Source: Rickettsiales bacterium
GTDB taxonomy: Bacteria > Pseudomonadota > Alphaproteobacteria > Rickettsiales > UBA1997
Length of the DNA: 64,000 nucleotides
Direction of reading: 5' to 3'
Assembly (NCBI GenBank): GCA_038123275.1
Contig: JAYORG010000003.1
Span: 4,956-68,955, forward strand
Shown here: positions 4,929-42,437 of the stretch, one piece after another
How positions within the stretch are numbered: position 1 is the first letter of the stretch
Layout: each line of letters starts with the position of its first letter
Program-made: the position numbers and the translations under genes
The notes under the pieces: generated by a model
What the model was told of the DNA's origin: nothing
What the model saw: the letters and a program-made list of their open reading frames with translations, nothing else
Database searches by the model: none

Positions 4929-6695
4929 TTATTTTGCCTCTTCTTCAATTTCAAATTGCTTATGATATAAGTTAGCATAGGCACCATTTTTCTTTAATAA
5001 AGCTTTATGAGTTCCAGATTCAACAATTTTACCATTATTAACTACGCAAATCTTATCTGCATGCATGACAGTAGAAAGGCGATGTGCAATTACTATTGTA
5101 GTTCTTCCTTTCATTAATTTTTTTAAGGCATTTTTAACTAAATTTTCTGAAATTGGATCTAGTGCAGAAGTAGCTTCATCAAGAAGTAAAATTGGAGCAT
5201 CATAAAGAATAGCTCTAGCAATGGCAATTCTCTGTCTTTGTCCGCCTGATAGCCTAATTCCATTTTGTCCAATTTGGGTATCGTAGCCATTGGCTAGTTC
5301 TTTAATAAATTCATCCGCTTCTGCCATTTTGGCAGCCTTAATAATTTGTTCTTTGGTAGCATTTTCTTTGCCATATCGAATATTTTCAATTATAGTATCG
5401 TCAAAAAGCATAACTTCTTGATTAACGACAGACATAGAATTGCGCAAAGATTTTAGTGTTACATTTTTAATATCTTCTCCATCAATTGAGATTGAGCCTT
5501 TTGTTGGATCATAAAATCTTAAAAGCATACTCATGATAGTAGATTTCCCACCGCCAGAATGACCAACTAAAGCTATCATCTTTCCTCCATCTATTTTTAG
5601 GTTTATTCCATTTAAAGCAGTTTTATCCTTGATATAGTTAAAATTAATGTTTTTAAAGACAATATTGCCTTTGACTTTTTTTAACTCCTTGGCATTACTT
5701 TTGTCAACAATTTGTGGCTTTTCATCAAGTAAGGTATAAAATCTTTGTGTAGATCCAAGGCCAAGTTGAATTCCTGAATTCATGCTAGAGACCGATTTTA
5801 ATGGTTTATAAGCCATCATCATAGCAGTAAAAAATGAGAAAAATGCACCAGGTGTAGTTTCTCCAGTTAGAACTTGATGTCCTCCGTACCAAATAACTAA
5901 AGCAACGCCAATTCCTCCTAACATTTCAACCATTGGTGACGCTATTATAGAAAGACGAGCAATTTTTTTTCCTAAGTTAAATATTCCATCTATTACAGTA
6001 GACATCCTTTTGGTTTCAAAATTCTCGCAATTATAAGATTTTACTAATTTAGAATATTGCAAAGTGTCATCCATTTGAGATATAAATCTTTGTCCAGCTC
6101 CTATATCAGAAAAAGAAAGCTTGCGTAGTCTCTTTCCGATTCTGTATATTGGATAGGCAGCTAATGGAAATCCTATAAAACCTACTATTGCTAATTCTAA
6201 ACTTTGATAAAACATTACCCCTATCAAAAAAATCAAAGTAAATAATTGTTTTACAAAGCCATTTATAGTTGTGTTAATCATTCCATTTATTCTATCTACT
6301 TCCATCATGATTTTAGCAATCATTTCTCCAGAAGAACTTTTATGTAATGTTGATATATCTGAATAAATAAAATGGCTATATAGCCTTTTCCTCATCGATG
6401 CTACTATTTTTAAACTTATTAGGTTCATGGTAAAAAGTTGAAAATAAGTAGCAAATCCTCTAATTACAGTTACTCCAAGAATAACTAAAGGTATAATTGC
6501 TAGCATGGTGACATTTTTATTAACAAAAATTTCATCAAGAGCTGGTTTTACCAAGTAAGCTTGGAACGCAGTTGTAATTGCAATAATTATCATCAAAAAT
6601 ATTGATATTAGAAGAGTTTTTTTGTGAGGAAGTATATATTCTTTGCTCAATCTTTTGGCTAGGTAGCCATTTTTTGAATAATCTATTTCTGTCAT
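4929..6695 (-). CDS. msbA: ABC exporter with fused permease and ATPase, MsbA-like lipid/glycolipid flippase
   Basis: N-terminal six-TM domain, Walker A GHSGGGKST, signature LSGGQRQR and Walker B LLLDEATSALD. It borders the glycan island. Confidence 0.7.
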   Translation of the reverse strand: MTEIDYSKNGYLAKRLSKEYILPHKKTLLISIFLMIIIAITTAFQAYLVKPALDEIFVNKNVTMLAIIPLVILGVTVIRGFATYFQLFTMNLISLKIVASMRKRLYSHFIYSDISTLHKSSSGEMIAKIMMEVDRINGMINTTINGFVKQLFTLIFLIGVMFYQSLELAIVGFIGFPLAAYPIYRIGKRLRKLSFSDIGAGQRFISQMDDTLQYSKLVKSYNCENFETKRMSTVIDGIFNLGKKIARLSIIASPMVEMLGGIGVALVIWYGGHQVLTGETTPGAFFSFFTAMMMAYKPLKSVSSMNSGIQLGLGSTQRFYTLLDEKPQIVDKSNAKELKKVKGNIVFKNINFNYIKDKTALNGINLKIDGGKMIALVGHSGGGKSTIMSMLLRFYDPTKGSISIDGEDIKNVTLKSLRNSMSVVNQEVMLFDDTIIENIRYGKENATKEQIIKAAKMAEADEFIKELANGYDTQIGQNGIRLSGGQRQRIAIARAILYDAPILLLDEATSALDPISENLVKNALKKLMKGRTTIVIAHRLSTVMHADKICVVNNGKIVESGTHKALLKKNGAYANLYHKQFEIEEEAK

Positions 6696-6792
6696 TTATG
6701 CTAGGTAGATAATTTTATTAATAAGAGGTGGATATTTTAGACGTAAGAAGTTAAATTAACAGAAAATAATTTTAAATTTAACTAAATTATAA

Positions 6793-7785
6793 ATGAAAAG
6801 AATATTAGTAACAGGTGGTTGTGGATTTATAGGAAGCGCTTTTATTTTAAGTCAAATTAATCAAGGTAATTTGGTTGTCAACTTAGATAAATTGACTTAT
6901 GCAGCAAATTTAAATAATTTAAAAGAGGTTAATAATAATAAAAATTATATTTTCCAGAAAGGTGATATTGGTGATGCTAAATTAGTTAAAGATTTATTAA
7001 ATAAATATAAAATTGATTGGTTAGTAAACTTTGCTGCAGAATCTCATGTTGATAATTCCATTAAGTCACCAGGAGAATTTATTAAAACCAACATAAATGG
7101 TGTTTTTAATTTATTAAATGAGTCTTTAAGTTATTGGAATAATTTAGATTCCAAAAAGAAAAATGATTTTAAATTTCTTCATGTTTCAACAGATGAAGTT
7201 TATGGTTCTTTGTCTTTAAATGAGCCTGCATTTACTGAAGATAATCGTTATCAACCAAACTCACCCTACTCTGCTTCAAAAGCAGCTTCAGATCATTTGG
7301 TTAGAGCTTGGAATGAAACTTATGGATTGCCAACTATCACTACAAACTGTTCTAACAATTTTGGACCAAGACAACATCAAGAAAAATTAATTCCAACTAT
7401 TATTAATAGTTGCATTAAAAATAAAGAAATTCCAATTTATGGCAATGGCACAAATATTAGAGATTGGATTTATGTCCAAGATCATACAGATGGCATTGAG
7501 TTAGCTCTAAAAAAAGGAAAAACAGGTGAAACTTATTGTTTTGGCGGTAGAGCTGAGAAGCAAAATATTGAAGTGGTAAATACAATTTGTGAAATATTAG
7601 ATGATACAAAGCCAAGATTGGATAAAAAATCTTATAAAGAACAAATTACTTTTGTAAAAGATCGCTTAGGGCATGATAAAAGATATGCAATTAATGATGA
7701 TAAAGCTAGAAGTGAACTTGGTTTTGTGACTAACAAGTCTTTTGAAGAAAGAATTAAAGAGACTGTTGAGTGGTATTTATTTTAA
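6793..7785 (+). CDS. rfbB: dTDP-glucose 4,6-dehydratase
   Basis: Motifs VTGGCGFIGS, FAAESHVDNSI, STDEVYG and YSASKAASDHLVRAW; 330 aa. Confidence 0.9.
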   Translation: MKRILVTGGCGFIGSAFILSQINQGNLVVNLDKLTYAANLNNLKEVNNNKNYIFQKGDIGDAKLVKDLLNKYKIDWLVNFAAESHVDNSIKSPGEFIKTNINGVFNLLNESLSYWNNLDSKKKNDFKFLHVSTDEVYGSLSLNEPAFTEDNRYQPNSPYSASKAASDHLVRAWNETYGLPTITTNCSNNFGPRQHQEKLIPTIINSCIKNKEIPIYGNGTNIRDWIYVQDHTDGIELALKKGKTGETYCFGGRAEKQNIEVVNTICEILDDTKPRLDKKSYKEQITFVKDRLGHDKRYAINDDKARSELGFVTNKSFEERIKETVEWYLF

Positions 7786-8350: not shown

Positions 8351-9446
8351 GATTAATTATAGATTTAATAATTTTATAAGATGATTTTCCATCTCCATAT
8401 GGATTTTTTATATTATGTTTTGCTATGTTATTTACTATAATTTTTTTAGATTCCTTAATTATTAAATCTTTATTGGTTCCCACTAATTTAGCAACTTTTG
8501 ATTCAATTCCTTCTTGGCGTTCAGTCTCATTCCTCATAACTAATAAAGGAGTTCCAAACGTTGGTGCCTCTTCTTGTATCCCTCCTGAATCAGTTAATAT
8601 TAGAGATGCTTTTGCAATAATGTTTACCATTGGTTGGTAATCTAGAGGTTCTATAAGGCTAATGTTATTTATATTGGATAATATTTCATTAACAGGTTTT
8701 CTAACATTAGGGTTTAAGTGTACTGGAAAAACAAAATGTATATCACTATATGTTAGTGCTAATTCTTTAATTGCTTCAAGTATATTTTTAAATTCAATTC
8801 CAAAGCTTTCTCTTCTGTGTGCAGTTACTAGGATTAGTTTTTTATCTTGTGGTATTGTGGATAATTTTGACTTGTTCCAATTAAAAGGTAATTTTTCAAT
8901 AATTTTTAGAGCATCAATGACGGTATTACCAACTACTAATATTTTTTCTTTATCTACTTTTTCTATGAGTAAGTTAGCTTTATTTCTTATTGTTGGGGCA
9001 AATAGTAAATCTGCTGTTATGTCAGCTATTCTTCGGTTTAATTCTTCTGGGTATGGATGATATAAATCTCCAGTTCTGAGTCCAGCTTCAATGTGAGCAA
9101 ATTTGATTTTGTGGTAATATGCAATTAAAGAAGAAACCATAACAGTCGTTGTGTCTCCTTGTGCTACAATCCATTCTGGTTGATATTTTGTTGTTATCTC
9201 ATCTAGTGATTTAAATAAATCTGCAGTTAAGGAGCTAAGGGTTTGATTTTCTTTCATTAAGTTTAGCTCTATATCTGGCTTAAGATTAAATAGATTTAAG
9301 ACTTGTTGTAGCATCTCTTTATGTTGGCCAGTGGAAACTATTATCGTTTCTATCTTGTCTTTATTTTTTAATGCCTCCATAATGACAGGTGCTACTTTTA
9401 TAGCTTCTGGCCTTGTTCCAATTATAAAAAATATTTTTTTCTTCAT
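8343..9446 (-). CDS. wecB: UDP-N-acetylglucosamine 2-epimerase
   Basis: Motifs IIGTRPEAIKVAPV, GDTTTV, HIEAGLRT and DSGGIQEEAP; 367 aa. Confidence 0.85.
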   Translation of the reverse strand: MKKKIFFIIGTRPEAIKVAPVIMEALKNKDKIETIIVSTGQHKEMLQQVLNLFNLKPDIELNLMKENQTLSSLTADLFKSLDEITTKYQPEWIVAQGDTTTVMVSSLIAYYHKIKFAHIEAGLRTGDLYHPYPEELNRRIADITADLLFAPTIRNKANLLIEKVDKEKILVVGNTVIDALKIIEKLPFNWNKSKLSTIPQDKKLILVTAHRRESFGIEFKNILEAIKELALTYSDIHFVFPVHLNPNVRKPVNEILSNINNISLIEPLDYQPMVNIIAKASLILTDSGGIQEEAPTFGTPLLVMRNETERQEGIESKVAKLVGTNKDLIIKESKKIIVNNIAKHNIKNPYGDGKSSYKIIKSIINHG

Positions 9447-9447
9447 A

Positions 9448-10176
9448 TTATTTAAACTTTAATCCAATTGAATCTATATTGTTGACCTTTAGGGCTAAAA
9501 CTTTTTTATCTTGTTTTATTACTCCATTCATTGCTGGACAAAGGAATAAATTATCATTATTGTTATATTCCTTAAAATTTTGCAAACTATCAGATACTGA
9601 GTTTAAAAATATACTTAAATTTTTAAAAAAATATACTCCCGCAGAGGCGTTGCCTTCTTTTTTACAGTTATCTTTATTGAAAATCCATCCTTTCTTTTCT
9701 TTTGTTTCTAAAACATAGTTATTTTTGATATCAGCATAGCTATAAGATAGATTATTAGATTTAAAATAAGGCAATATAGCACCAATATTATCATCTTTAA
9801 AGATTTTATCTATAGTTAGCTCTTCTTCAAAATCAAAAGCGATATCAATTAGGTCAACTATTATAGGGCTAGAAAAATCTTTTATTAATGAAGATGCAGC
9901 TAGAGAAGACATTAGAGCTCCTTTAGCATAGGATGATATTTTGACAATTTTACAATCAAGATATTTCTGTTTTAGATATTTCTCGCATTCATTGGATTCT
10001 TTTATATCTTTTAAAGTAAAGATAATATTCTTTGTTGGTATTTCATTATTTTTAATCCAACTTCTGGATTTAATGATTTTATCTATTAGAGTTGTTGAAC
10101 CTATTTTAAAAAGAGGCTTTATACCTAAATCTTTATTTATGAAGTCTGGTCCAGCTAGGGGAATTATTGTATACAT
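9448..10176 (-). CDS. GT-A-fold nucleotidyltransferase-like protein, function unknown
   Basis: The N-terminus IIPLAGPDF...KPLFKIG..TLIDKI resembles sugar-phosphate nucleotidyltransferases and the C-terminal domain of the 10518-11897 protein. Confidence 0.4.
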   Translation of the reverse strand: MYTIIPLAGPDFINKDLGIKPLFKIGSTTLIDKIIKSRSWIKNNEIPTKNIIFTLKDIKESNECEKYLKQKYLDCKIVKISSYAKGALMSSLAASSLIKDFSSPIIVDLIDIAFDFEEELTIDKIFKDDNIGAILPYFKSNNLSYSYADIKNNYVLETKEKKGWIFNKDNCKKEGNASAGVYFFKNLSIFLNSVSDSLQNFKEYNNNDNLFLCPAMNGVIKQDKKVLALKVNNIDSIGLKFK

Positions 10177-10177
10177 T

Positions 10178-10513
10178 TTAGTATAAATATGCTCTAAGTT
10201 CTTTAATTACACCTTTATTCCATTCAATTATATCAGTTCCTTTTAGCACTTTGTCGTCCAGTTTTAATGTAAACTCTATGATGCTAACTTGCTTTTTTGA
10301 ATCTATAAAAATATTACTTGCTGTGAATGCTAAGCTATTTGTATTATCAAAAAGATTCTTTATCATTGCTTTAACGTCATTAATGCCCAATATTCCATTT
10401 GGGTTTGCTGGATCAAAAAGAGTTATATTATTGTCTAGCATATTACATACTGTATTTAAATCTTTTGCATCAAATGCTTTAATGTATTCTGTTGTTTTAT
10501 CAATTATATCCAT
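10178..10513 (-). CDS. NTF2/SnoaL-like small protein
   Basis: 111 aa with an alpha+beta cone-like pattern typical of the SnoaL_2/ketosteroid-isomerase-like fold. The assignment is weak. Confidence 0.35.
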   Translation of the reverse strand: MDIIDKTTEYIKAFDAKDLNTVCNMLDNNITLFDPANPNGILGINDVKAMIKNLFDNTNSLAFTASNIFIDSKKQVSIIEFTLKLDDKVLKGTDIIEWNKGVIKELRAYLY

Positions 10514-10517
10514 AATT

Positions 10518-11897
10518 TTATTTATTATTTTTATTTAATAATTCTAAATATATTTCCAGATCTGCTGGAGTTCCTGTGCCATGCATTTGATCAAATTTTA
10601 TATCATAAAAGCCAATCTTTTTATTGTCTGCAATTATATAATTATAAACAGGACAAACATAAAATTCATTATTAACTCTATCATTTTCTACTATCATGTC
10701 AATTGAGCCATCAACAAAATATCTACCTTCTTTAAATAAATATATACCAACTGTAGCTCTATTGGATATAAGCTGCTTTTCTTTTACTTGGGTTACTAAG
10801 TTATTTTCATTAATTTTAGCAAAAGACCATTTTGGATTTCTTTCTTTATCAATAAAAGTTAAAATTGATCCATCTAGACTTCGATCAAGACAATCATTTA
10901 CAAAATTCTCAATTTTAATGTCTATTATTTGATCAGAGTTAGCGATCATTAATGGTATATCATTATTAATTAAGTTTCTTGCTTTTAGAACTGTGCAAAC
11001 TGCTCCTTCTGTTAGTTTGTCAACAGAAATGAATTCAACATTGTAATGTTTTTTTATTTGAGCTACAAATTCAACCCTTTGCTCAAAATGTTCTTTTCTG
11101 ACAATTAATATATATTTGGCATTTGGGTATCTTAAATTATCTAATACTCTTTCAATCATGCATTTTCCATTAACATCAATAAATGGTTTTGGATCTTTAT
11201 ATCCTGCTTCAACAAATCTACTTCCTGCCCCAGCCATTGGAACTACTATATTAATAGATGTATTTTTATCTATTTGATTAATTCTGTTTTTAATATTTCC
11301 ATAATCAACATCTAGTATTGAGTCAACTTTTAATACATTTGCTTTACTTGCTCTTGCTGCTTTTAGTCCATTAAAATTATCTTCTATTATTAAACATTCA
11401 TCAGGGTTTAAATTCATTTTCTTAATAGCTTCAATGTAAATATCAGGATGTGGTTTTTTGTTTTTTACATCTTCGTTTGATAAAAAGAAGTCCATATATT
11501 TTAGTAGGTCAGCTTTAGATAGGAATAAATCTACCGTTTTTCTGATTGAATTGGAGCATACAGCAAGTTTATATCCATCATTTTTTAGTTTTTCCATAGC
11601 TTTTATATGTAAAGCAATGGGTTTTATGTTTTTTAGGCCAATTTCCCAGGTGTATTTTTGTTTTAAATCATTAATTTTTTGATATAACTTTTTGTCTAAG
11701 CCTCTTTCTTTAGATAAAATATCAAGTTTTTGATTTGTAGATAGTCCATCAAACCTTGTTAAATGATCTTCTCTTGAAATTATTTCTATATTATGATCTG
11801 TTAAGGCTTTATTTAGAGCTTCATAATGCCAATCTTTAGCTTCTATAAGTACTCCATCCATATCAAATAATATGGCTTTTATTTTGTTATTTGTCAT
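10518..11897 (-). CDS. fusion protein: HAD-superfamily phosphatase/mutase (beta-PGM-like) plus a sugar-phosphate nucleotidyltransferase-like domain
   Basis: The HAD motif I ILFDMDGVL lies near the N-terminus and IIEDNFNGLKAA is motif IV-like. The C-terminal half has VVPMAGAGSRF...KPFIDVNGKCMIE. The start is placed at the ATG for MTNNKIKAILFDMDG; the 19-aa extension in the ORF track overlaps the upstream gene. Confidence 0.7.
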   Translation of the reverse strand: MTNNKIKAILFDMDGVLIEAKDWHYEALNKALTDHNIEIISREDHLTRFDGLSTNQKLDILSKERGLDKKLYQKINDLKQKYTWEIGLKNIKPIALHIKAMEKLKNDGYKLAVCSNSIRKTVDLFLSKADLLKYMDFFLSNEDVKNKKPHPDIYIEAIKKMNLNPDECLIIEDNFNGLKAARASKANVLKVDSILDVDYGNIKNRINQIDKNTSINIVVPMAGAGSRFVEAGYKDPKPFIDVNGKCMIERVLDNLRYPNAKYILIVRKEHFEQRVEFVAQIKKHYNVEFISVDKLTEGAVCTVLKARNLINNDIPLMIANSDQIIDIKIENFVNDCLDRSLDGSILTFIDKERNPKWSFAKINENNLVTQVKEKQLISNRATVGIYLFKEGRYFVDGSIDMIVENDRVNNEFYVCPVYNYIIADNKKIGFYDIKFDQMHGTGTPADLEIYLELLNKNNK

Positions 11898-12525
11898 AAA
11901 AAAAATTTTTTGCTTTATCGGGGTAATCAGTGCAAATAGCCAAAGATTCAACACAATTAAGTGTTTTATAAAACTTCCATCTTGTCAAGTAGTTATCCTT
12001 CTTGTGTAATTCAGGTGAAACAATAACAATTTCTTTTTTATTTTTTAAGTGGTCGTTTAAGATTTCTTTATTAATCCATTCCTTATTAAATTCATCCATC
12101 CAGACTCCTCTAGCAATATTATAAAAAGAAGGTAGGGTTTCATAATCGCTTTGCCTAGTATATAAATTGTTAAAATCATTCCTATGATAATTTATGGCAT
12201 CTGGCACGGACATATCAAATAAAAAATAGTTATCAATGTTATATTGATTTAATAGTTCTTTAATTTTTAGCTGCAAACCGTCAGATTTAATATTAATTGC
12301 TAGAGTTAGGTTGTTCTTGAAAGATTTATATAATTTTAATAATTCTGATAATAAAATTATGTTATTACTCTTTAAGGGAATGTCGTGAGATATAACAATA
12401 CTACCATCTAAATCCCTAACATCAAACTCAATGCCAAAATTATTTTTAAAGGAATTTGTAAAGGCTTCAATTGAATTTGGCTTTATATTATCATTCCAAA
12501 AGCCTCTGTGAGATATTATTTTCAT
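11887..12525 (-). CDS. glycerophosphodiester phosphodiesterase (GDPD)-family protein
   Basis: The N-terminal ISHRGFW...NSIEAF...GIEFDVRD..GSIVISHD pattern matches the GDPD catalytic core. Confidence 0.6.
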   Translation of the reverse strand: MKIISHRGFWNDNIKPNSIEAFTNSFKNNFGIEFDVRDLDGSIVISHDIPLKSNNIILLSELLKLYKSFKNNLTLAINIKSDGLQLKIKELLNQYNIDNYFLFDMSVPDAINYHRNDFNNLYTRQSDYETLPSFYNIARGVWMDEFNKEWINKEILNDHLKNKKEIVIVSPELHKKDNYLTRWKFYKTLNCVESLAICTDYPDKAKNFFYDK

Positions 12526-17335: not shown

Positions 17336-17417
17336 TTAATCTTGTTGATTTATTTTTAATTATATTAAATACTAACTACCTCGCAATAGAGTTTTATGAA
17401 CTAATAATAATAATTTT

Positions 17418-18083
17418 ATGGATATCAAATTAGCTGAGTGGTCTGGAGCAGTTTCAACGCCAGAATTTATTTTATCACTTTTTCTAACCTTTATTTTTGG
17501 GTTTATTCTGAAAATGCATTTTGTGCATTATGGAGGAGTGATAGGTAACAGGTATGGGTTTTCTAGAATTCTGCCTACAATAGCATTAACGACCCTATTT
17601 GTGATTACTATTGTAAAGTCTTCACTTGCTTTATCTCTTGGTTTAGTTGGGGCATTGTCAATTGTACGTTTTAGGACTCCAATAAAAGAACCAGAAGAAT
17701 TGGCTTATATTTTTACTGCTATTGCTATTGGTTTAGGTTTTGGTGCCGGTCATATGTTAATAACATCTATTGCTACTACATTTATTTTGATAGTTACGAC
17801 TAGATTGAAGCGTTTTAATAAGCAAAAGAATAAGAGTATGTATCTGTTTTTAGAAATAGAAAATGAAAAAGTAAATCATAACGATATTAATGATATTATT
17901 TTTAAAACCATTGATTCTGCTGATTTAAGAAGATATGACACTTCTAAAGAAATATCAATATTGCATTATATATTAAATATTAGAAATAATAGTGATTTAG
18001 ATAAAATTATCTCTTCTTTAAAGAAAAAATATAAGAATGCATCAATATCATTCTTTGATAGCAATGATGCTCCTAAAATATAA
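17418..18083 (+). CDS. DUF4956-like polytopic membrane protein
   Basis: At least 4 hydrophobic segments and the motif LSIVRFRTPIKEPEELAYIFTAIAIGLGFG, followed by a soluble ~90-aa C-terminal domain. Confidence 0.65.
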   Translation: MDIKLAEWSGAVSTPEFILSLFLTFIFGFILKMHFVHYGGVIGNRYGFSRILPTIALTTLFVITIVKSSLALSLGLVGALSIVRFRTPIKEPEELAYIFTAIAIGLGFGAGHMLITSIATTFILIVTTRLKRFNKQKNKSMYLFLEIENEKVNHNDINDIIFKTIDSADLRRYDTSKEISILHYILNIRNNSDLDKIISSLKKKYKNASISFFDSNDAPKI

Positions 18084-18099
18084 TTTTTTGCTTTGATGT

Positions 18100-20895
18100 A
18101 TGCTTTTTAAAAAGGAAGATGTTGAGCAAAATTTTATTTCTAAACTTTTATTTTTTATAAAATCTACTTATAATAGGTTTAAATTTTTAATTATAACAAT
18201 CTCCATAGCTGTTAGTTTGATTATAGCAATGAAATATGGTCAAGAGTCTGTAGGGGTTAGGCATACTAAAGATGTGCCTATGGCTATAATCAAAAGTACT
18301 CCCAATTTTTTAGAGTACATTAAAGAAAATATTAAATATCCAATTTCAAAGAAATTACCATTAGTAGAGTTTGACATAAAATTTAAACATTTTATGAAAA
18401 TAGCTTTATTAAGAAATAAGACCTTAGAAAATGATAATGGTCTTATTTCTATTAAGGGTGCTAATAGTTGGTTTCCAGCAAAGTTAAAATATAATAATAA
18501 GGAATATGATATTAGAGTTAGATTAAAAGGTGATTTAAAAGATCATAGGGATCATCCATATAAATGGTCATTTAAAGTAAAAATAAAAGATGGATCAATA
18601 TTTCAAATGAGATCCTTTTCAGTTCAGCATCCAAAAACAAGAAATTATTTGGCAGAACCATTAATTCTATCTTTAGCCAGGAATTCTGGCTTGCTAGCTC
18701 CAAGAAGCTTTTTTGTTAGGGCAAAGGTAAATGGAAAAGATATTGGCGTTATGAATTTAGAAGAAGGGTTTGCTAAGGAATTAGTTGAACACCAAGACAG
18801 AAGGTATTCAATGATTCTTAAACATAAGGAAGATGAAATATTTTTATTTCATTTGTCACCTGAGCATATGAATACAGAGCGCATGAGATATATAGCAGAT
18901 TATTCCCAGTTATCTTTCTTTCCGACCTCAAATAAAATTTATGAAGATAGCACACAAAAAAAAATATACCAAGACCTTGTTGGAAAATATAGATCTTTTA
19001 TTGATAATAAATTAAATGCATCAGATATATTTGATTATAAAGCTATGGCAAGATTTTTTGCTTTTCATCAAGTAATGCTTTATAATGAACATGGTATATC
19101 TCCTACAAGTACTAGAATGCAATATAACTCCATAATAGGTAAAATGGAGCCTATATTTTATGATAATAATTATACAATCTTAAAAGATGATATTGATATT
19201 AAAGAAAATATAAAAAAAGAAGAAGAGTATCGCATGATGGTAAAAATACTTTCCGATAGAAAAATATATAATGAATATCTAAATCAAATACAAATTATTG
19301 CAAATGATGTTATTAGTGGAAAGTATGATAATATTATAGATGATTATATTAAAAATAATGTTTCTCACTTAAGAAGAGAATTTATAATTCCAGATATAAG
19401 AGAGTATAATTTCAAAAGTATATTGAAAAATAGATCTAAGAATATTGCAAATTTATTTTCAGGTGAGGAGAAGGAATATAAGAATGTTATTAAGAAATTT
19501 AAAGAAGTAACAGAAAATAATACAAATTTAGATCCAAATATATATAGGGAATATGCAATAAATGACATTCCCAAATATTACTCCCATGATAAGAAATTGC
19601 TGATTATTCAAGCATTTGAAGTGCAAAAAGATAAAAAAGATTTTCTTGAAATTAGGAATATAATGCCTCACGAAACATATATTAAAAAAATAGTAGTTCG
19701 CAATAAAGCAGGAGCAAAAGAAGATAATAAGGTTATTGAGTATAATTATCCAATAAGACTAGAAAGATCTTTTGCTTATTCTGTTCCTAAGTCAATTTTT
19801 ATTCCTTTTAATAAACCAGATATAGATTATGAGATTATTGTTTATGCATATCCACCTAAATTAAAAAATAAAATTTATAAACATGTTGCTATTAAGCATT
19901 ATGCCTTGCCATCAAATAAATATAGTGGAATACCAAGAGATGATTCTAGTTTTATTAATAAGAATAATAATTTCATCAAGATATTAGGAAAAAATATTTA
20001 TATAAATGAGGGGAATTATAACGTAAATGAACCAATTATTATCCCTTCTGGATATAAGTTAACAATAAATCCTGGTGTAGTTTTAAATTTTAGCAAAAAG
20101 TCATTTTTGATATCCTATAGTCCAGTAAAAATTAATGGCACAAAAAAGAGTCCAATAATATTACAAGCAATGGGTAATGATAGTTGGGGTGGAATTTTAG
20201 TTGTGGAGTCTAGTAGTAAATCTTATATAAATAATACAGAAGTAAAGAATGTGTCTGGAGTTGCGAAAGATCTTTGGAAAACGGGTTCTTCTGTTGGATT
20301 TTATAAATCTGATGTAGATATAAATAACTTAAGAATAATTAATAATTATGCAGAAGATGCTTTAAATATTATTAGTTCTAAGTTTAAAATTAATAATTTA
20401 TTTATCAAAAATACAGTTTCTGATGGCTTTGATTGTGATTTTTGTGAAGGAGAGATTAGAGATAGTCAATTTTATAATATTGGTAAAATAGGAGGTGATG
20501 CTGTAGATGTTTCTGGTAGCAATGTTATGCTTGATAATATTATGTTTGATAGAGTGTCAGATAAGGCTATTTCTGCTGGAGAACAAAGTAATGTTAAGGT
20601 CAGTAATGTTAAAATTAATAATTCTTTAGTAGCATTTGCATCAAAAGATTTATCAGTACTTAATGTTAAAAATAGTAAAGCTGAAAATATAAATCTTGCA
20701 TGTGCAATGTCATATAAGAAAAAAGATGACTTTGGAGGAGCTTCGCTTTCTATTACTGATAGTATTTGTAAGTCTAATGCTAGAGATTATGTTTCTCAGG
20801 ATGGTAGTATTTTGAAGGTGAACAATAAAATCATTGCAAATGAGAATTTAAATATAGATGATTTATATCAAAGTTTAATGAAAAAACATAGGTAG
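18100..20895 (+). CDS. membrane-anchored CotH-like (atypical kinase fold) protein fused to a C-terminal right-handed beta-helix (PbH1-type repeats)
   Basis: One N-terminal TM (FLIITISIAVSLIIAM). CotH-like segments RVRLKGDLKDHRDHPYKWSFKVKIK, FSVQHPKTRNYLAEPL and KVNGKDIGVMNLEE. The C-terminal ~300 aa carry repeated N/I/V-ladder units (NNLRIINN.., NNLFIKNT.., VMLDNIMFD.., VKVSNVKINN..). Confidence 0.65.
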   Translation: MLFKKEDVEQNFISKLLFFIKSTYNRFKFLIITISIAVSLIIAMKYGQESVGVRHTKDVPMAIIKSTPNFLEYIKENIKYPISKKLPLVEFDIKFKHFMKIALLRNKTLENDNGLISIKGANSWFPAKLKYNNKEYDIRVRLKGDLKDHRDHPYKWSFKVKIKDGSIFQMRSFSVQHPKTRNYLAEPLILSLARNSGLLAPRSFFVRAKVNGKDIGVMNLEEGFAKELVEHQDRRYSMILKHKEDEIFLFHLSPEHMNTERMRYIADYSQLSFFPTSNKIYEDSTQKKIYQDLVGKYRSFIDNKLNASDIFDYKAMARFFAFHQVMLYNEHGISPTSTRMQYNSIIGKMEPIFYDNNYTILKDDIDIKENIKKEEEYRMMVKILSDRKIYNEYLNQIQIIANDVISGKYDNIIDDYIKNNVSHLRREFIIPDIREYNFKSILKNRSKNIANLFSGEEKEYKNVIKKFKEVTENNTNLDPNIYREYAINDIPKYYSHDKKLLIIQAFEVQKDKKDFLEIRNIMPHETYIKKIVVRNKAGAKEDNKVIEYNYPIRLERSFAYSVPKSIFIPFNKPDIDYEIIVYAYPPKLKNKIYKHVAIKHYALPSNKYSGIPRDDSSFINKNNNFIKILGKNIYINEGNYNVNEPIIIPSGYKLTINPGVVLNFSKKSFLISYSPVKINGTKKSPIILQAMGNDSWGGILVVESSSKSYINNTEVKNVSGVAKDLWKTGSSVGFYKSDVDINNLRIINNYAEDALNIISSKFKINNLFIKNTVSDGFDCDFCEGEIRDSQFYNIGKIGGDAVDVSGSNVMLDNIMFDRVSDKAISAGEQSNVKVSNVKINNSLVAFASKDLSVLNVKNSKAENINLACAMSYKKKDDFGGASLSITDSICKSNARDYVSQDGSILKVNNKIIANENLNIDDLYQSLMKKHR

Positions 20896-20911
20896 AAAAT
20901 TAAATATAATA

Positions 20912-21580
20912 ATGAGACATGAATTAAAATTTGTTACAGAATCCACTAATATCGACACTATTTATAAGTGGTTACATGATTCTAGGTTTTTATTTTATAA
21001 AAAATTTGAAGATAGAACGGTAAATAATGTTTATTTTGATAATAATGAATTTTCTTCTTATAAAGAAAATGTAATTGGTGTTTCAAGAAGGCAAAAATTA
21101 AGATATAGATGGTATGGAAAAAGCTCTGTACCAATGGCTGGAACCTTAGAGGTTAAGAATAAAAGCAATAGTGTTAATTGGAAAGAAAATTTTTCTATTA
21201 AAAAATCTCCATATAAACAAGGTGATACGTGGCGTGATATTATAACTAATATTAAGGACTATTCTAATAATAATAAAACCCATTTATTGTTTCAAGAATA
21301 TAGTATACCAGTTGTAATTAATCGTTATGATAGACAATATTATGAATCTAAAACAGATAATGTTCGTATCACTATAGATCAAAATCTTTCTGCTTATCAG
21401 CAACATTCTTTAATTAAGCCAAATTTCTTAAATAAATCTTATATGGATGATTTTATAGTTATTGAGTGTAAAATACCTCAAGATCAATATAATAATGCTA
21501 AATTATTGTTAAAAACTTTTCCTGTAACTAGAACAAAAATGTCAAAATATGTTTATTGTGGATTTTGTAATTTTAATTAA
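20912..21580 (+). CDS. VTC-domain / CYTH-like triphosphate tunnel metalloenzyme (polyphosphate-polymerase-domain protein)
   Basis: N-terminal RHELKF (ExK), plus NNVYFDN, RRQKLRYRWYG, VRITIDQNL and VIECKIP. These alternating basic/acidic beta-strands are typical of the VTC/CYTH tunnel. Confidence 0.65.
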   Translation: MRHELKFVTESTNIDTIYKWLHDSRFLFYKKFEDRTVNNVYFDNNEFSSYKENVIGVSRRQKLRYRWYGKSSVPMAGTLEVKNKSNSVNWKENFSIKKSPYKQGDTWRDIITNIKDYSNNNKTHLLFQEYSIPVVINRYDRQYYESKTDNVRITIDQNLSAYQQHSLIKPNFLNKSYMDDFIVIECKIPQDQYNNAKLLLKTFPVTRTKMSKYVYCGFCNFN

Positions 21581-21587
21581 GAGTTGC

Positions 21588-22193
21588 ATGAAAAAGATAT
21601 TATTTATTCCATTGCTATTTCTTTCTTCCTTTTGCAAGAGTAGTTCCCATTTTGTTCATGATTATAGTGCAAATTTAGAAGATAATTTAGTTAATGTGGT
21701 AGTTGAAATCCCTGCTGGAACTCATGAAAAATGGGAAGTAAATAAATCTAATGGTAAAATAGAATTAGAGTATAAAAAGAATAAGCCTAGAATAATTAAA
21801 TATTTACCCTACCCCTTTAATTATGGCATGATTGCTAGAACTTTAGGGGGAGATGGAGATCCTCTTGATGCTATAATTATTGGTGATACTATTAAGAGAG
21901 GCAGTATTCCTAGAGTAAAAATTATAGGTATATTAAAGATGAAAGATAAAGGCGAGCAAGACGATAAAATTATTACAATATCAAGTAATAGTAAGTTATA
22001 TAATATTAACAGTATAGATGAATTAAAGACTAAGTTTCCTGGTGTAGACTTGATAATTAGAACTTGGTTTAAAAATTATAAAGGAAAGAAAAAAGGTAGA
22101 AGTAAAGTTATGATTGAGGGGTTTGGCAATAAGGATGAAGCAAATGATATTATTATTAGGGCTATTGATAATTATAAATTTAAAGAAAAATAA
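21588..22193 (+). CDS. ppa: family I inorganic pyrophosphatase with an N-terminal signal peptide
   Basis: PPase signature DGDPLDA, plus VVEIPAGTHEKWEV and YPFNYGMI. The N-terminus MKKILFIPLLFLSSFCKSS is signal-peptide-like. The start is placed at ATG 21588, just after the upstream stop. Confidence 0.8.
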   Translation: MKKILFIPLLFLSSFCKSSSHFVHDYSANLEDNLVNVVVEIPAGTHEKWEVNKSNGKIELEYKKNKPRIIKYLPYPFNYGMIARTLGGDGDPLDAIIIGDTIKRGSIPRVKIIGILKMKDKGEQDDKIITISSNSKLYNINSIDELKTKFPGVDLIIRTWFKNYKGKKKGRSKVMIEGFGNKDEANDIIIRAIDNYKFKEK

Positions 22194-22943
22194 ATGTTTA
22201 ATTTAAAAAAAAATAAAGATGATACTTTATATAATATAGTTTATTCTCATTCTGATTATTCTGATATATGGCCTTTATATTTTGGACAAACCAAGAAATA
22301 TTTTAATAATGAATTTCCTAAAATAATTTTTTCTAATCAAAACTCCAATAAGATTTCTAAAGATTATAAATTAATTACTTATAAAGATGCTCAGACTTAC
22401 CCAGAAAGACTTATAGAGTGCTTTGGAAAGCTCAATGCTAAATATTGTATTTTTTCTCACGAGGATATGTTTTTATATGATTATCCAAAAAATGATATTT
22501 TGGATAAATATATTAAAGCTATGCAAGAAAATAGATTTGATTTTATAAGGCTTATTAAGGGAGGAGATTGTGTTTACAAGGAAAGTGATATTGATAAAAC
22601 TTTATTTGAGTTAGATGGTAAAAAATCAAAATGGATATTTTCTATACAGCCAATAATATGGAAAATAGATTCTCTTGTTAAAATATTAAAAAAACATAAA
22701 AAGGATAATATTTGGGAATTAGAAGAAAAAGCTCAAAAAACCTGTAAAAAGTTAAAAATAAAAGGTGCCTTTTCTTTTGGAGAAGGAAAAAAAAGAGGAA
22801 TTCATCATTTTGATAATAACGTATATCCATATATTGCAACGGCAATTGTTAAGGGGAAATGGAATATTTCAGAATATAGTGACATACTTCCCAAGTTATT
22901 GGAGGAATATAACATTGATTATAAAATTAGAGGAAAATTTTAG
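22194..22943 (+). CDS. hypothetical protein (capsule/LPS-locus type, possibly a transferase)
   Basis: Long ORF that starts immediately after the ppa stop. No confident motif. Confidence 0.3.
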   Translation: MFNLKKNKDDTLYNIVYSHSDYSDIWPLYFGQTKKYFNNEFPKIIFSNQNSNKISKDYKLITYKDAQTYPERLIECFGKLNAKYCIFSHEDMFLYDYPKNDILDKYIKAMQENRFDFIRLIKGGDCVYKESDIDKTLFELDGKKSKWIFSIQPIIWKIDSLVKILKKHKKDNIWELEEKAQKTCKKLKIKGAFSFGEGKKRGIHHFDNNVYPYIATAIVKGKWNISEYSDILPKLLEEYNIDYKIRGKF

Positions 22944-40367: not shown

Positions 40368-42437
40368 TTAAAATGGACCTTTAAATTCTTCTAATTCATT
40401 ATTTTCAATTGTAATGTTTTTCCATATTATTAAATCCAAACCAAGCATTTGACAAATTCTATCAGCAATTGTTTTGCTATTTGGATAAAATAAATCTTCT
40501 AATGTTTTAGTAGTTGGGCATGTTGTAGGTGCAAAGCCCATTCTGGAAATTTGTATTGGCTTACCATTTAGTCCATTTGGAAATAGTTCACTAATTTTGG
40601 CAGAAATTTCAGCGGATATGCCAAATTCTATCCAACCATTATCGATAATTAATAATTTACCTGTTTTTTGAATGGAATTTTTAATTAACTCTATATCAAG
40701 TGGATTAATCCATATTGGATCTATTACTTCAGCATTAATACCAATTGTTTCTAGATGTTTAGCAGCTCTTATAGATTCTATAGTCATATGAGAAATTGCT
40801 ACAATAGTAATATCATTACCTTTTTTTATTATCCTGCCTTTTCCTATTTCTATTTCATATGACTTCTCTGGGACATAACTTTTTGTATTGCAAAGTAAAC
40901 GGTGTTCCATAAAAATAACCGGATTATTATCTCTAATGGCAGCAATCATAGACCCTTTGGCATCATAAGCATTAGATGGCGCTACAATTCTTAGGCCTGG
41001 AATATGTGCAAATAATGAATGTAAAGCTTGAGAATGTTGAGCCCCCTGCCCCCATGACCTACCAATCATTGTGCGAATTACTAGTGGAACTTTTATATTA
41101 CCGTTATACATATAATGAGCTTTTGCACCCATATTAATTAATTGATTCATACATAGCGTTAGGAAATCCATTCTAATATGAACATGAATTGGTCTTAGGC
41201 CATACATAGCAGAGCCAATAGCAACTCCAGTCATAGCATCTTCTGATAGAGGTGTGCCAAAAATTCTATTAGATCCAAATTCTTTTAATATTCCAGCAGT
41301 TGAGCCCTGAATCTCTTTATGATCATCTACATCAAGACCAAAGACAAAAACCTTATCATCTCTTCTCATTTCTTCTTTGCAAGCATCAGAAATTGCGTCT
41401 ACGTATCTTATTAATTTTTGTTCTTGGGATTTAAGACTGCTATCTTTTATGGTTTCTTTTGGGGCATAAATATTTTCCATTAACTCTTTTTGCCCAGGAA
41501 ACTTTGATTTTTCAGAAAACTCTATTGACTGATTAATTAAACCATCAACCTCTTTGGCTATTTTTTCTTCCTCTTTATTGCTAATTAATTTTGACAATAC
41601 TTTTATCTGATCATTTTCTAGCCACCATTTATACTCTTCTAAGTCACGATATTCTTCATTTAAATCCTCTTCTGGACCAACATGCTCTTTGTGTCTATAA
41701 GTAAAACATTCAATAAATATTGGCCCTGAATTTGGATTGTTTTTAATTTCTTCAATGGCAGATTTTGCTATATCTCTTATTTTAAAAATATCACCATCCT
41801 TAATACGATGTGTCTTAATTCCATAACTTTCTACTCTTTCACAAATTTTATTTGTTGGCCAGCGTTTTTCTATTGGGTTGTGAATGGCAAGTTTATTGTT
41901 TTCGCATAAAAATATTATTGGCAATTTATGTAAAGCTGCAAAATTAATTGATTCACTAAAACAACCCTCTTCTGTGGCACCGTCACCAAAAAAAGAAACT
42001 ATAACTCTTTGTTTTTTAGTTTTTTGGAATTCTTTTTTTAAAGCTAAGGCATAGCCAGTGGCAACAGGAATTGTAGTGCCAACCACAGCAGAAGCACCCA
42101 TAATACCGTGATTCATGTCAATTAAATGCATTGATCCAGCCTTTCCTCCAGCACAACCATCTTTTTTGCCGTAAAGCTCTGCCATCATTTTGTTTAAATC
42201 TCCACCTTTAGCAATATGAGTGGCATGACACCTATAGGTATTAGAAATTATGTCATCTTTATTTAAAACATCACAAACCGCAACCGCAACCGCTTCTTGA
42301 CCAATTGATAAATGTATGGGACTTTTTATAACATCAGTATGATAAATTTGAGCTATCTTTTCTTCAAACCTTCTAATTAATAAAGTTTTTTTGTATAAGC
42401 GTAAAACTAAATCTTGATCAATATCTACTTTTTTCAC
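40368..42437 (-). CDS. thiamine-diphosphate-dependent E1 dehydrogenase, fused alpha-beta polypeptide
   Basis: The N-terminal half is E1-alpha-like (SIGQEAVAVAV, FFGDGATEEG, LCENNKLAI). The C-terminal half is E1-beta-like (FGTPLSEDAMTGVAIGSA, RIVAPSNAYDAKG). 689 aa. Confidence 0.8.
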   Translation of the reverse strand: MKKVDIDQDLVLRLYKKTLLIRRFEEKIAQIYHTDVIKSPIHLSIGQEAVAVAVCDVLNKDDIISNTYRCHATHIAKGGDLNKMMAELYGKKDGCAGGKAGSMHLIDMNHGIMGASAVVGTTIPVATGYALALKKEFQKTKKQRVIVSFFGDGATEEGCFSESINFAALHKLPIIFLCENNKLAIHNPIEKRWPTNKICERVESYGIKTHRIKDGDIFKIRDIAKSAIEEIKNNPNSGPIFIECFTYRHKEHVGPEEDLNEEYRDLEEYKWWLENDQIKVLSKLISNKEEEKIAKEVDGLINQSIEFSEKSKFPGQKELMENIYAPKETIKDSSLKSQEQKLIRYVDAISDACKEEMRRDDKVFVFGLDVDDHKEIQGSTAGILKEFGSNRIFGTPLSEDAMTGVAIGSAMYGLRPIHVHIRMDFLTLCMNQLINMGAKAHYMYNGNIKVPLVIRTMIGRSWGQGAQHSQALHSLFAHIPGLRIVAPSNAYDAKGSMIAAIRDNNPVIFMEHRLLCNTKSYVPEKSYEIEIGKGRIIKKGNDITIVAISHMTIESIRAAKHLETIGINAEVIDPIWINPLDIELIKNSIQKTGKLLIIDNGWIEFGISAEISAKISELFPNGLNGKPIQISRMGFAPTTCPTTKTLEDLFYPNSKTIADRICQMLGLDLIIWKNITIENNELEEFKGPF

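Follow-up and report, generated by a model that had tools for sequence, protein, structure and literature searches.

What would a bacterium do with a putative polyphosphate (polyP) polymerase encoded beside a membrane protein of the DUF4956 family, a CotH-like protein ending in a beta-helix and an exported pyrophosphatase (PPase)? This question is raised by a piece of DNA from a Rickettsiales bacterium (assembly GCA_038123275.1, contig JAYORG010000003.1, positions 4,956 to 68,955), analysed over its full 64,000 nucleotides and referred to below as the window. In the sequence-only reading made earlier on this DNA, the four genes were seen as a bacterial analogue of the yeast VTC complex, which would feed phosphate polymer to an envelope CotH kinase. 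The DUF4956, CotH/beta-helix and VTC genes form a tightly coupled operon, and this trio is the unit. On this conserved three-gene base, a four-part envelope system in which polyP would be made, exported, used and cleared is proposed from the sequences, as a serious possibility that still falls short of probable.

Relatives of the 931-aa CotH-like/beta-helix protein (the big protein), searched for with a 10-sequence profile in one genome per species, occur in at least 515 species-level genomes, the best of them being only about 30% identical to the protein of the window. They span Nitrospinota, Gamma- and Alphaproteobacteria, Myxococcota, Planctomycetota, Chloroflexota, Bacteroidota, a Prochlorococcus single-cell genome and others. 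Gene linkage was counted over 82 non-redundant loci with locally built profiles, loci with 2.5 kb or more on either side being counted as well flanked. The big gene is directly preceded by the DUF4956 gene, in the same orientation, in 58/70 loci and directly followed by the VTC gene in 62/75, very commonly with a 4-nt overlap of stop and start codons. Both partners are present in 51 of the 55 well-flanked loci.

Within the trio, the VTC protein carries the best-supported inference of the whole module, a predicted polyP-polymerase activity. It matches Pfam PF09359 at 5.1e-28 (98.7 bits against a cutoff of 23 bits) over profile positions 2-228 of 235, and the profile of its family recovers the structures of Vtc2, Vtc3 and Vtc4 at 1e-9 to 1e-7. 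For this protein, as for the DUF4956 protein and the family I PPase, the family proposed earlier is thus borne out by Pfam matches well above the curated cutoffs. In the alignment of 40 trio-linked sequences, basic and acidic residues alternate along the strands as in a triphosphate tunnel. Residues of yeast Vtc4 were mapped onto the protein using 3G3Q/8I6V: K200 corresponds to K6, R264 to R64, R266 to R66, K281 to K82, K294 to K91, Y359 to Y139, R361 to R141, R373 to R152, E426 to E185, K428 to K187 and S457/K458 to S211/K212. All of them are invariant or at least 90% conserved in the 40 sequences, and the SKY motif (S211-K212-Y213), aligned with the FSKF of Vtc4, is at least 90% conserved.

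The mapped positions are those whose mutation lowers polyP in yeast. They include the three residues of the standard dead mutant, R264A/R266A/E426N, and K458, the only residue not shared by the inactive paralogues Vtc2 and Vtc3. Because these mutagenesis-defined residues, including the lysine of K458, are invariant or nearly so, the VTC protein looks like an active polymerase. Conservation of the tunnel residues had been named as a point on which the sequence-only reading could fail, and all the catalytic residues of Vtc4 are kept. By hydropathy, the protein is soluble, with no transmembrane (TM) segment, and a search of plasmids with it gave no match. No paper on a functional bacterial VTC polymerase was found in the literature.

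In yeast, VTC couples polyP synthesis to translocation. The likeness with the bacterial locus lies in the catalytic tunnel domain, which keeps all residues needed for polyP synthesis, in the pairing of a soluble polymerase, predicted on the cytoplasmic side, with a small polytopic membrane protein, and in the phosphohydrolases predicted on the far side of the membrane. On the other hand, the catalytic domain is here a stand-alone protein of 222 aa, in which neither Pfam nor hydropathy reveals an SPX sensor or a fused C-terminal TM domain of the DUF202 type. Its membrane partner belongs to another family, and the third obligatory partner, the CotH/beta-helix protein, has no counterpart in yeast.

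The membrane partner matches DUF4956 (PF16316) at 1.1e-15, with 58.2 bits against a cutoff of 30.6. Five TM helices are predicted (residues 14-38, 45-65, 69-86, 92-109 and 113-134). The core SIVRFRTPIKEPEELAY, invariant in 42 sequences, spans helix 3, the loop RFRTPIKEPEE and helix 4; from the positive-inside distribution of charges, this loop is inferred to face the cytoplasm. The AlphaFold model (predicted local distance difference test score, pLDDT, of 82) shows the five helices followed by a beta-alpha-beta-beta-alpha-beta domain at residues 139-214, which in a Foldseek search of the PDB matches the ACT and PII-like (SbtB) ligand-binding folds. The membrane part found no relative in the same search, even if the PDB includes the cryo-EM structures of VTC. 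A homologue of the yeast VTC channel was therefore rejected, as neither Pfam nor Foldseek detects any likeness to Vtc1. Membership of the MgtC family was also discarded, with 18 bits against a cutoff of 31.4 for Pfam PF02308 and 15.5 against 214 for NCBIfam, so that a resemblance to MgtC is distant at best. The DUF4956 protein is proposed to be a conduit or a docking subunit. The bacterial VTC analogue put forward earlier thus comes through the in silico tests that were run, except that its membrane component has no detectable relation to the yeast channel.

The big protein begins with a TM anchor and ends with a right-handed beta-helix; between them lie a CotH-like kinase-fold domain and a helical/beta-sandwich linker (Table 1). 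The members of its family are 850-1000 aa long. At full length it has no match in Pfam, and its N-terminal half alone reaches 20.5 bits with CotH (PF08757), under the cutoff of 23.8 bits. Among 38 full-length homologues, 28 match CotH and 18 match the Pfam Beta_helix model. The family profile aligns with nearly the complete chain of Bacillus cereus CotH, 5JD9 (HMMER, E = 2e-11), and hhalign gives a probability of 96.8 for the relation to CotH. The AlphaFold model (pLDDT 82, predicted template modelling score 0.83) is similar to 5JDA (Foldseek, E = 1.4e-11, template modelling score 0.71), and its C-terminal half recovers AlgG/AlgE epimerases, GH87 enzymes, PL3 lyases and tailspikes. The CotH plus beta-helix architecture described from the sequence is hence right at the level of fold and family profile, whereas the single sequence stays below the Pfam cutoff. 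A basic stub precedes the single TM helix (residues 27-45), so that most of the protein is expected outside the inner membrane.

The active site does not follow the fold. The catalytic Asp of Bacillus subtilis CotH is D228, and the D228Q mutant is inactive (PMC7821199). These catalytic residues were transferred to the 5JD9 chain by an identical 23-residue spacing, and two aligners, HMMER and hhalign, place H331 of the 931-aa protein (nt 19090-19092) at the position of the catalytic Asp. In the profile alignment of 97 family members, this column holds His in 88 and Asp in 2. The Asn of the catalytic loop is kept in 88/97 members, and the protein of the window carries a rare Ser (S337). The metal-binding Asp (D251 in B. 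subtilis) corresponds to D355 and is an Asp in 94/97. The 931-aa protein is thus CotH-like in fold, yet it lacks the catalytic Asp and so misses one defining feature of CotH kinases. With His for the catalytic Asp and Ser for the loop Asn, the label of kinase used in the sequence-only reading is not established for this protein, and the CotH-like domain, as far as its residues tell, may be unable to transfer phosphate at all. What is shared with the Bacillus CotH kinases (5JD9/5JDA) is the atypical kinase fold and the metal-binding Asp. Apart from the largely invariant His, the family differs in being predicted to be extracytoplasmic and membrane-anchored, in its fusion to a beta-helix and in having no sporulation context.

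The most conserved portion of the protein is not the kinase-like domain; it is a row of residues on the beta-helix. D753, D775, D778, D800, D803, K822, S825 and E828 are invariant in 97/97 members, and this acidic site is of a type found in glycan lyases and epimerases. In short or fused variants, the beta-helix core is kept at a high score and the kinase-like part is weakly recognizable. At one metagenome locus (L091:9437-12378), the big protein is encoded as two adjacent ORFs, one for the CotH-like part (9437-10915) and one for the beta-helix (10912-12378); this split is either a frameshift or evidence that the halves work as separate polypeptides.

The same three families are known from another setting. 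Genes for cotH, a polyP polymerase and a DUF4956 protein were described as accessory genes that adjoin the pel operons of Gram-positive bacteria (Whitfield et al. 2020), and the trio of Streptococcus intermedius, SIR_1592-1594, has been partly characterized genetically (mBio 2025). There, deletion of the DUF4956 gene raised Pel, deletion of the CotH gene lowered it, and both deletions cut aggregation; no phenotype was reported for deletion of the polymerase gene. The authors did not find the arrangement outside pel loci. An older paper on Clostridium perfringens lists VTC-domain and CotH genes together beside a chitin-synthase-like gene. With the pel accessory trio, the window shares the contiguity of the three families beside an exopolysaccharide locus, a secreted CotH protein and a DUF4956 protein, described there as an MgtC-like TM domain plus ACT. 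It differs in its host, a Gram-negative alphaproteobacterium, in the gene order DUF4956, CotH, VTC, in the fusion of the CotH-like domain to a conserved beta-helix (FN3 there), in the absence of pel genes from the neighbourhood and in the additional exported PPase. Moreover, the present scan finds the trio in hundreds of species, often without glycan genes.

Glycan-type genes (GT2, GT4, epimerase, DegT) are present within 8 kb in 19 of 40 well-flanked trio loci, for example at a Nitrospina locus and at a capsule-like locus of Ulvibacterium with NeuB, Wzx and Wzy. Unrelated genes surround the trio in Photobacterium, Moritella, Shewanella, Pseudoalteromonas and Prochlorococcus. An obligatory glycan-island setting was rejected on these counts.

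Some loci of this set show further particularities. The big gene occurs twice, in diverged copies located on separate contigs, in each of three metagenome-assembled genomes (MAGs), from Rhodospirillaceae (L008 and L015), Nitrospinaceae (L028 and L032) and Latescibacterota (L010 and L086), which suggests paralogous trios within one genome. The trio of the Prochlorococcus single-cell genome AG-347-M15 (L081:9040-13120) lies among helicase and sugar-kinase genes, and one full-length homologue of the big protein (P0010) is labelled as coming from a Heimdallarchaeota MAG; these two occurrences would reflect either horizontal spread or binning contamination. PAS-GGDEF diguanylate cyclase genes adjoin the trio in Photobacterium (L059:7644-8531) and Pseudoalteromonas (L076:14557-19282), and recall the diguanylate cyclase/phosphodiesterase gene found with the trio at the pel loci of Bifidobacterium.

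The conserved beta-helix and the proximity to glycan genes lead to a first alternative, in which the trio would encode an enzyme that modifies glycans, together with its regulators in the cytoplasm. Catalysis would reside in the beta-helix, as an epimerase, lyase or hydrolase of an envelope polysaccharide, with the CotH-like domain as a pseudokinase or binding module. No polymer would be exported; the DUF4956 protein (MgtC-like, with an ACT domain) and the tunnel protein would act as sensors or signallers of nucleotide or phosphate status, and the PPase would serve some other PPi-releasing reaction of the periplasm. Such a scheme accounts well for an Asp/Lys/Ser row that is better kept than the kinase-like domain, for the fold matches to AlgG/AlgE, GH87 and pectate lyases, for the missing catalytic Asp and for the ACT/PII-like domain, a typical sensor of small ligands. 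The enrichment near glycan genes and at pel loci also fits, as does the S. intermedius genetics, in which the two other mutants alter the Pel level and no phenotype is reported for the polymerase mutant. It leaves unexplained, however, why a complete Vtc4 active site is translationally coupled to an exported protein in nearly every locus, and why exported PPases or metallophosphoesterases recur beside the trio, the PPases even fused to the big protein; many loci, in addition, have no glycan genes within 8 kb. This alternative is judged unlikely, though not negligible.

The fourth gene encodes a complete family I PPase. Its match to PF00719 (1.4e-38, 132.6 bits against a cutoff of 23.5) is accompanied by profile matches to family I PPases of the PDB at about 1e-27 to 3e-27. 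The catalytic motifs EIP, KxE, R, YxxY, DxDxxD, DxxxxDxK and YK are all present and invariant in the alignment, and a yeast-type K-x-G-K-x-R insertion is found. The protein starts with the signal peptide MKKILFIPLLFLSSFC, in which Cys16 aligns with the lipobox Cys of trio-linked relatives, and is thus predicted to be exported. The full set of catalytic motifs is common to the soluble enzymes of the family (Escherichia coli Ppa, yeast IPP1, acidocalcisomal VSP1). These enzymes are usually cytoplasmic, whereas the PPase of the window has a signal peptide with a Cys at the lipobox position and is genetically linked, in some relatives even fused, to the CotH/beta-helix protein. No description of an exported bacterial family I PPase was found in the literature.

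PPase genes are present at only 5 of the 55 trio loci (about 10%), always immediately adjacent. Besides the window, these are four unrelated lineages, namely a Methylomarinum MAG, two other Gammaproteobacteria and a Myxococcota MAG, whose PPases are 42-51% identical to that of the window and carry signal peptides with canonical lipoboxes. Seen from the PPase, the association is clearer. Metagenome loci were scanned with this subfamily and the best 80 relatives compared. Nearly all members of the subfamily have signal peptides, and trio genes abut the PPase in 20/80 (8/29 where at least 3 kb were available on both sides), which makes the trio the commonest neighbour of the subfamily; at the 60 loci without the trio, no neighbour family occurs in more than 6. 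The link takes at least six gene arrangements, at loci of 23-55% GC. The PPase gene is divergent and upstream of DUF4956 (5 loci), co-directional and upstream of it (4), downstream of VTC (3, window included), between the big gene and VTC (3), after a permuted trio (2), or fused to the C-terminus of the big protein (6).

The fusions come from six assemblies and encode a protein of about 1000 aa that starts with a signal peptide and ends with a complete PPase domain; the CotH-like region and the beta-helix core lie in between, and the fusion genes are flanked by DUF4956 and VTC. As they are only 47-66% identical to one another, their architecture is taken to be stable rather than artefactual. 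Through the fusion, PPase and big protein share one compartment, which speaks for a coupling of their functions. These data bear on the simplest alternative, that there is no four-gene unit and that an independent periplasmic phosphorus-scavenging PPase came to lie beside the trio by chance in a variable glycan island. The low share of trio loci with a PPase, the majority of subfamily members that are not beside a trio, and the co-directional array of the window, which continues on both sides of the module, are in line with it. Chance adjacency was nevertheless rejected and is considered very improbable: the six diverged fusions essentially refute it, and neither the variety of independent arrangements across such a range of GC contents nor the trio's rank as the commonest neighbour agrees with it. 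The PPase hence belongs to the system, given its related signal-peptide PPases, its commonest neighbour, its arrangements and its fusion. The linkage of the four families supposed from the window is therefore very strong for the trio and holds for the PPase through arrangements and fusion, but in a small fraction of the trio loci. Three PPase loci without the trio have a phosphate-selective porin (Porin_O_P) nearby, at about 1.6 kb (e.g., L164:7805-9214), which fits a general role in the hydrolysis of PPi or short polyP in the periplasm.

A second exported hydrolase accompanies the trio in other lineages. A calcineurin-like metallophosphoesterase adjoins it in 12 loci; the Pfam Metallophos model matches 8 of the 9 members tested, the GD and GNH motifs are invariant, and all members have an N-terminal signal peptide or anchor. 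Both hydrolases are present at one locus, in the Methylomarinum MAG (L012:1177-7468), where the exported PPase lies upstream of the trio (1177-1911) and the metallophosphoesterase downstream (6476-7468).

For the four-part system, the following course of events is proposed. The first and best supported step would be the polymerization of polyP from ATP by the cytoplasmic VTC protein, like yeast Vtc4. In a second step, the DUF4956 protein would dock the polymerase at its invariant basic loop and ACT/PII-like domain and, by analogy with yeast VTC, move the nascent chain across the inner membrane. The third step is the least certain: the periplasmic CotH-like/beta-helix protein would receive the polymer and use it as a phosphoryl donor, or attach it, in a compartment without ATP. 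Some envelope polymer bound to the beta-helix would serve as acceptor, and for this genome the probable candidate is the glycan that the neighbouring genes produce. Finally, as the linkage and the fusion suggest, the exported PPase would cleave PPi or short-chain remnants beside the big protein, thereby pulling the reaction forward and giving back Pi; in other lineages, the exported metallophosphoesterase would take over this role. The predicted topology, which agrees with the sequence-only reading on all four proteins (polytopic DUF4956 protein, one N-terminal TM helix in the big protein, soluble VTC protein, PPase with a signal peptide), fits such a model, with a cytoplasmic polymerase and both the big protein and the PPase extracytoplasmic.

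Several points weigh against this four-part system. The loss of the catalytic Asp, the rare Ser in the loop and the lyase- or epimerase-like character of the best conserved site have been described above, as has the missing likeness of the DUF4956 protein to Vtc1; its weak relative MgtC is, furthermore, a regulator and not a transporter. About half of the trio loci have no glycan genes nearby, and an exported phosphohydrolase of either kind is present at roughly a quarter of them, a minority. Family I PPases are generally poor long-chain polyphosphatases. PolyP, its transport and phosphotransfer are, for the bacterial members, predictions from homology and gene order, and no phenotype was reported for the polymerase mutant of S. 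intermedius.

The loci without glycan genes point to a further alternative, in which extracytoplasmic polyP would itself be the end product, as a store of phosphorus or cations or as an anionic layer in the periplasm or at the surface. The CotH/beta-helix protein would anchor or organize polyP through metal bridges to its acidic row, and the PPase or metallophosphoesterase would mobilize it back to Pi on need. The evidence from the polymerase, the membrane protein and the topology serves this scheme as well as the four-part system, and the trios without glycan neighbours, such as those of Photobacterium or Shewanella, are easily accommodated. The exported hydrolases would parallel the lumenal polyphosphatases of the yeast vacuole and the acidocalcisomal PPase, which is among the PDB matches, and some PPases of the subfamily outside trios lie near phosphate/pyrophosphate-type porins. 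Conversely, the scheme gives no clear role to a conserved kinase-fold domain with its His and metal-binding Asp, the hydrolases are confined to a minority of loci, and the accumulation of polyP is an assumption. It is held to be rather unlikely.

Part of what the sequence-only reading took to be undescribed is already published, as the link of the trio to glycan loci was reported for Gram-positive pel operons; the exported family I PPase, on the contrary, has no description that could be found. What appears to be new is the widespread Gram-negative form with CotH fused to a beta-helix, its near-obligatory operon structure, the His-for-Asp change in the active site, the invariant beta-helix site, and the exported PPase and metallophosphoesterase partners, including the PPase fusion.

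The four co-directional ORFs, the spacers of 82, 16, 16 and 7 nt (7 nt if the PPase begins with the Met at 21588) and the motifs quoted from them (SIVRFRTPIKEPEELAYIF, RHELKF, RRQKLRYRWYG, RITIDQNL, VIECKIP and DGDPLDA) are all present in the window. Public gene calls differ on two starts. For the DUF4956 protein, the 221-aa ORF is favoured over a call of 160 aa because homologues of 225-233 aa span 97-100% of it. For the PPase, the 201-aa start is favoured over a call of 214 aa because an AAGAG Shine-Dalgarno-like motif precedes the ATG of Met-14 and because of the alignment with relatives.

Table 1. Positions of the module genes, protein domains and adjoining elements in the window.
Feature	Position (nt)	Strand	Size	Remarks
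Upstream spacer	17336-17417		82 nt	AT-rich; sole sizeable gap nearby
DUF4956 ORF	17418-18083	+	221 aa	inner-membrane protein
CotH-like/beta-helix ORF	18100-20895	+	931 aa	membrane-anchored, extracytoplasmic (predicted)
TM anchor	18178-18234	+		residues 27-45, preceded by a Lys/Arg-rich cytoplasmic stub; hydropathy; helix 13-49 in the model
CotH-like kinase-fold domain	18349-19389	+		about residues 84-430
Right-handed beta-helix	19975-20820	+		about residues 626-907; model and Foldseek
VTC ORF	20912-21580	+	222 aa	stand-alone, predicted cytoplasmic polyP polymerase
PPase ORF	21588-22193	+	201 aa	counted from Met; frame open from 21549
Next ORF	22194-22943	+	249 aa	begins 1 base past the PPase stop codon

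Rather than standing alone, the four genes are embedded in a long co-directional array, at about 12.6-31 kb of the window. As the next ORF abuts the PPase stop codon, the transcription unit probably extends into the downstream glycosyltransferase genes; this ORF has no match in Pfam or among the defence models of PADLOC. Within 6 kb, the neighbours are GT1, GT2 and GT92-like glycosyltransferases, an acetyltransferase, DegT aminotransferases and epimerases, and the label of a glycan island is therefore correct, even if the module proposed within it is not delimited as a separate group of genes. No Pel-type gene set, or pelDEA(DA)FG operon, is found among them. A promoter scan of the 82-nt spacer gave fewer sites than shuffled sequence and is uninformative in such AT-rich DNA, so that no promoter could be assigned; a terminator scan was uninformative for the same reason. 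Rfam and tRNA scans of the window found nothing.

The host, an uncultured low-GC alphaproteobacterium, is Gram-negative, as the window also encodes MsbA, MltA, AnmK, LigA and a heptose kinase. Its nearest named relatives are MAGs labelled Rickettsiales, Pelagibacterales or Alphaproteobacteria, at only 48-65% identity; an assignment to SAR11 was rejected, since the best named relatives are Rickettsiales- or Pelagibacterales-like MAGs at this low level. The phosphorus-limited ocean bacterium of the sequence-only reading is thus a supposition. Three other genes of the window, all on the minus strand, are worth recording. A 689-aa ORF (40368-42437) joins the alpha (residues 10-325) and beta (343-664) parts of pyruvate dehydrogenase E1, which are usually encoded by two separate genes. 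A 478-aa fusion (10518-11954) combines a HAD-type phosphatase/beta-phosphoglucomutase-like domain (25-210) with a sugar-1-phosphate nucleotidyltransferase (237-466). A 558-aa protein (55214-56890) has a weak match, far below the cutoff, to the model of an ankyrin-repeat Dot/Icm effector (AnkH/LegA3, E = 1e-11); for a Rickettsiales-like lineage, a protein of ankyrin type would be worth noting.

The synthesis of polyP in bacteria is currently attributed to PPK1 and PPK2. If the four-part system is true, bacteria have in addition a polyP synthase and exporter of the VTC type. In its most complete form, this would be a PPK-independent pathway with a VTC-homologous core, export through DUF4956, polyP as the extracytoplasmic phosphoryl or energy currency, a His-type CotH-like/beta-helix enzyme that spends it on modifying envelope polymers, and recycling of the remnants by exported hydrolases, a picture that is possible but doubtful. 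The system would also answer how a secreted kinase-fold protein can work without ATP, and would add a new way of modifying the envelope or exopolysaccharides, with a bearing on the biology of Pel biofilms. Whatever the model, a tightly coupled operon is widespread in at least 515 species-level genomes, including those of cultured Photobacterium, Moritella, Shewanella and Pseudoalteromonas strains. It comes with residue-level predictions for mutagenesis, and with a previously undescribed class of exported family I PPase tied to it through gene fusion.

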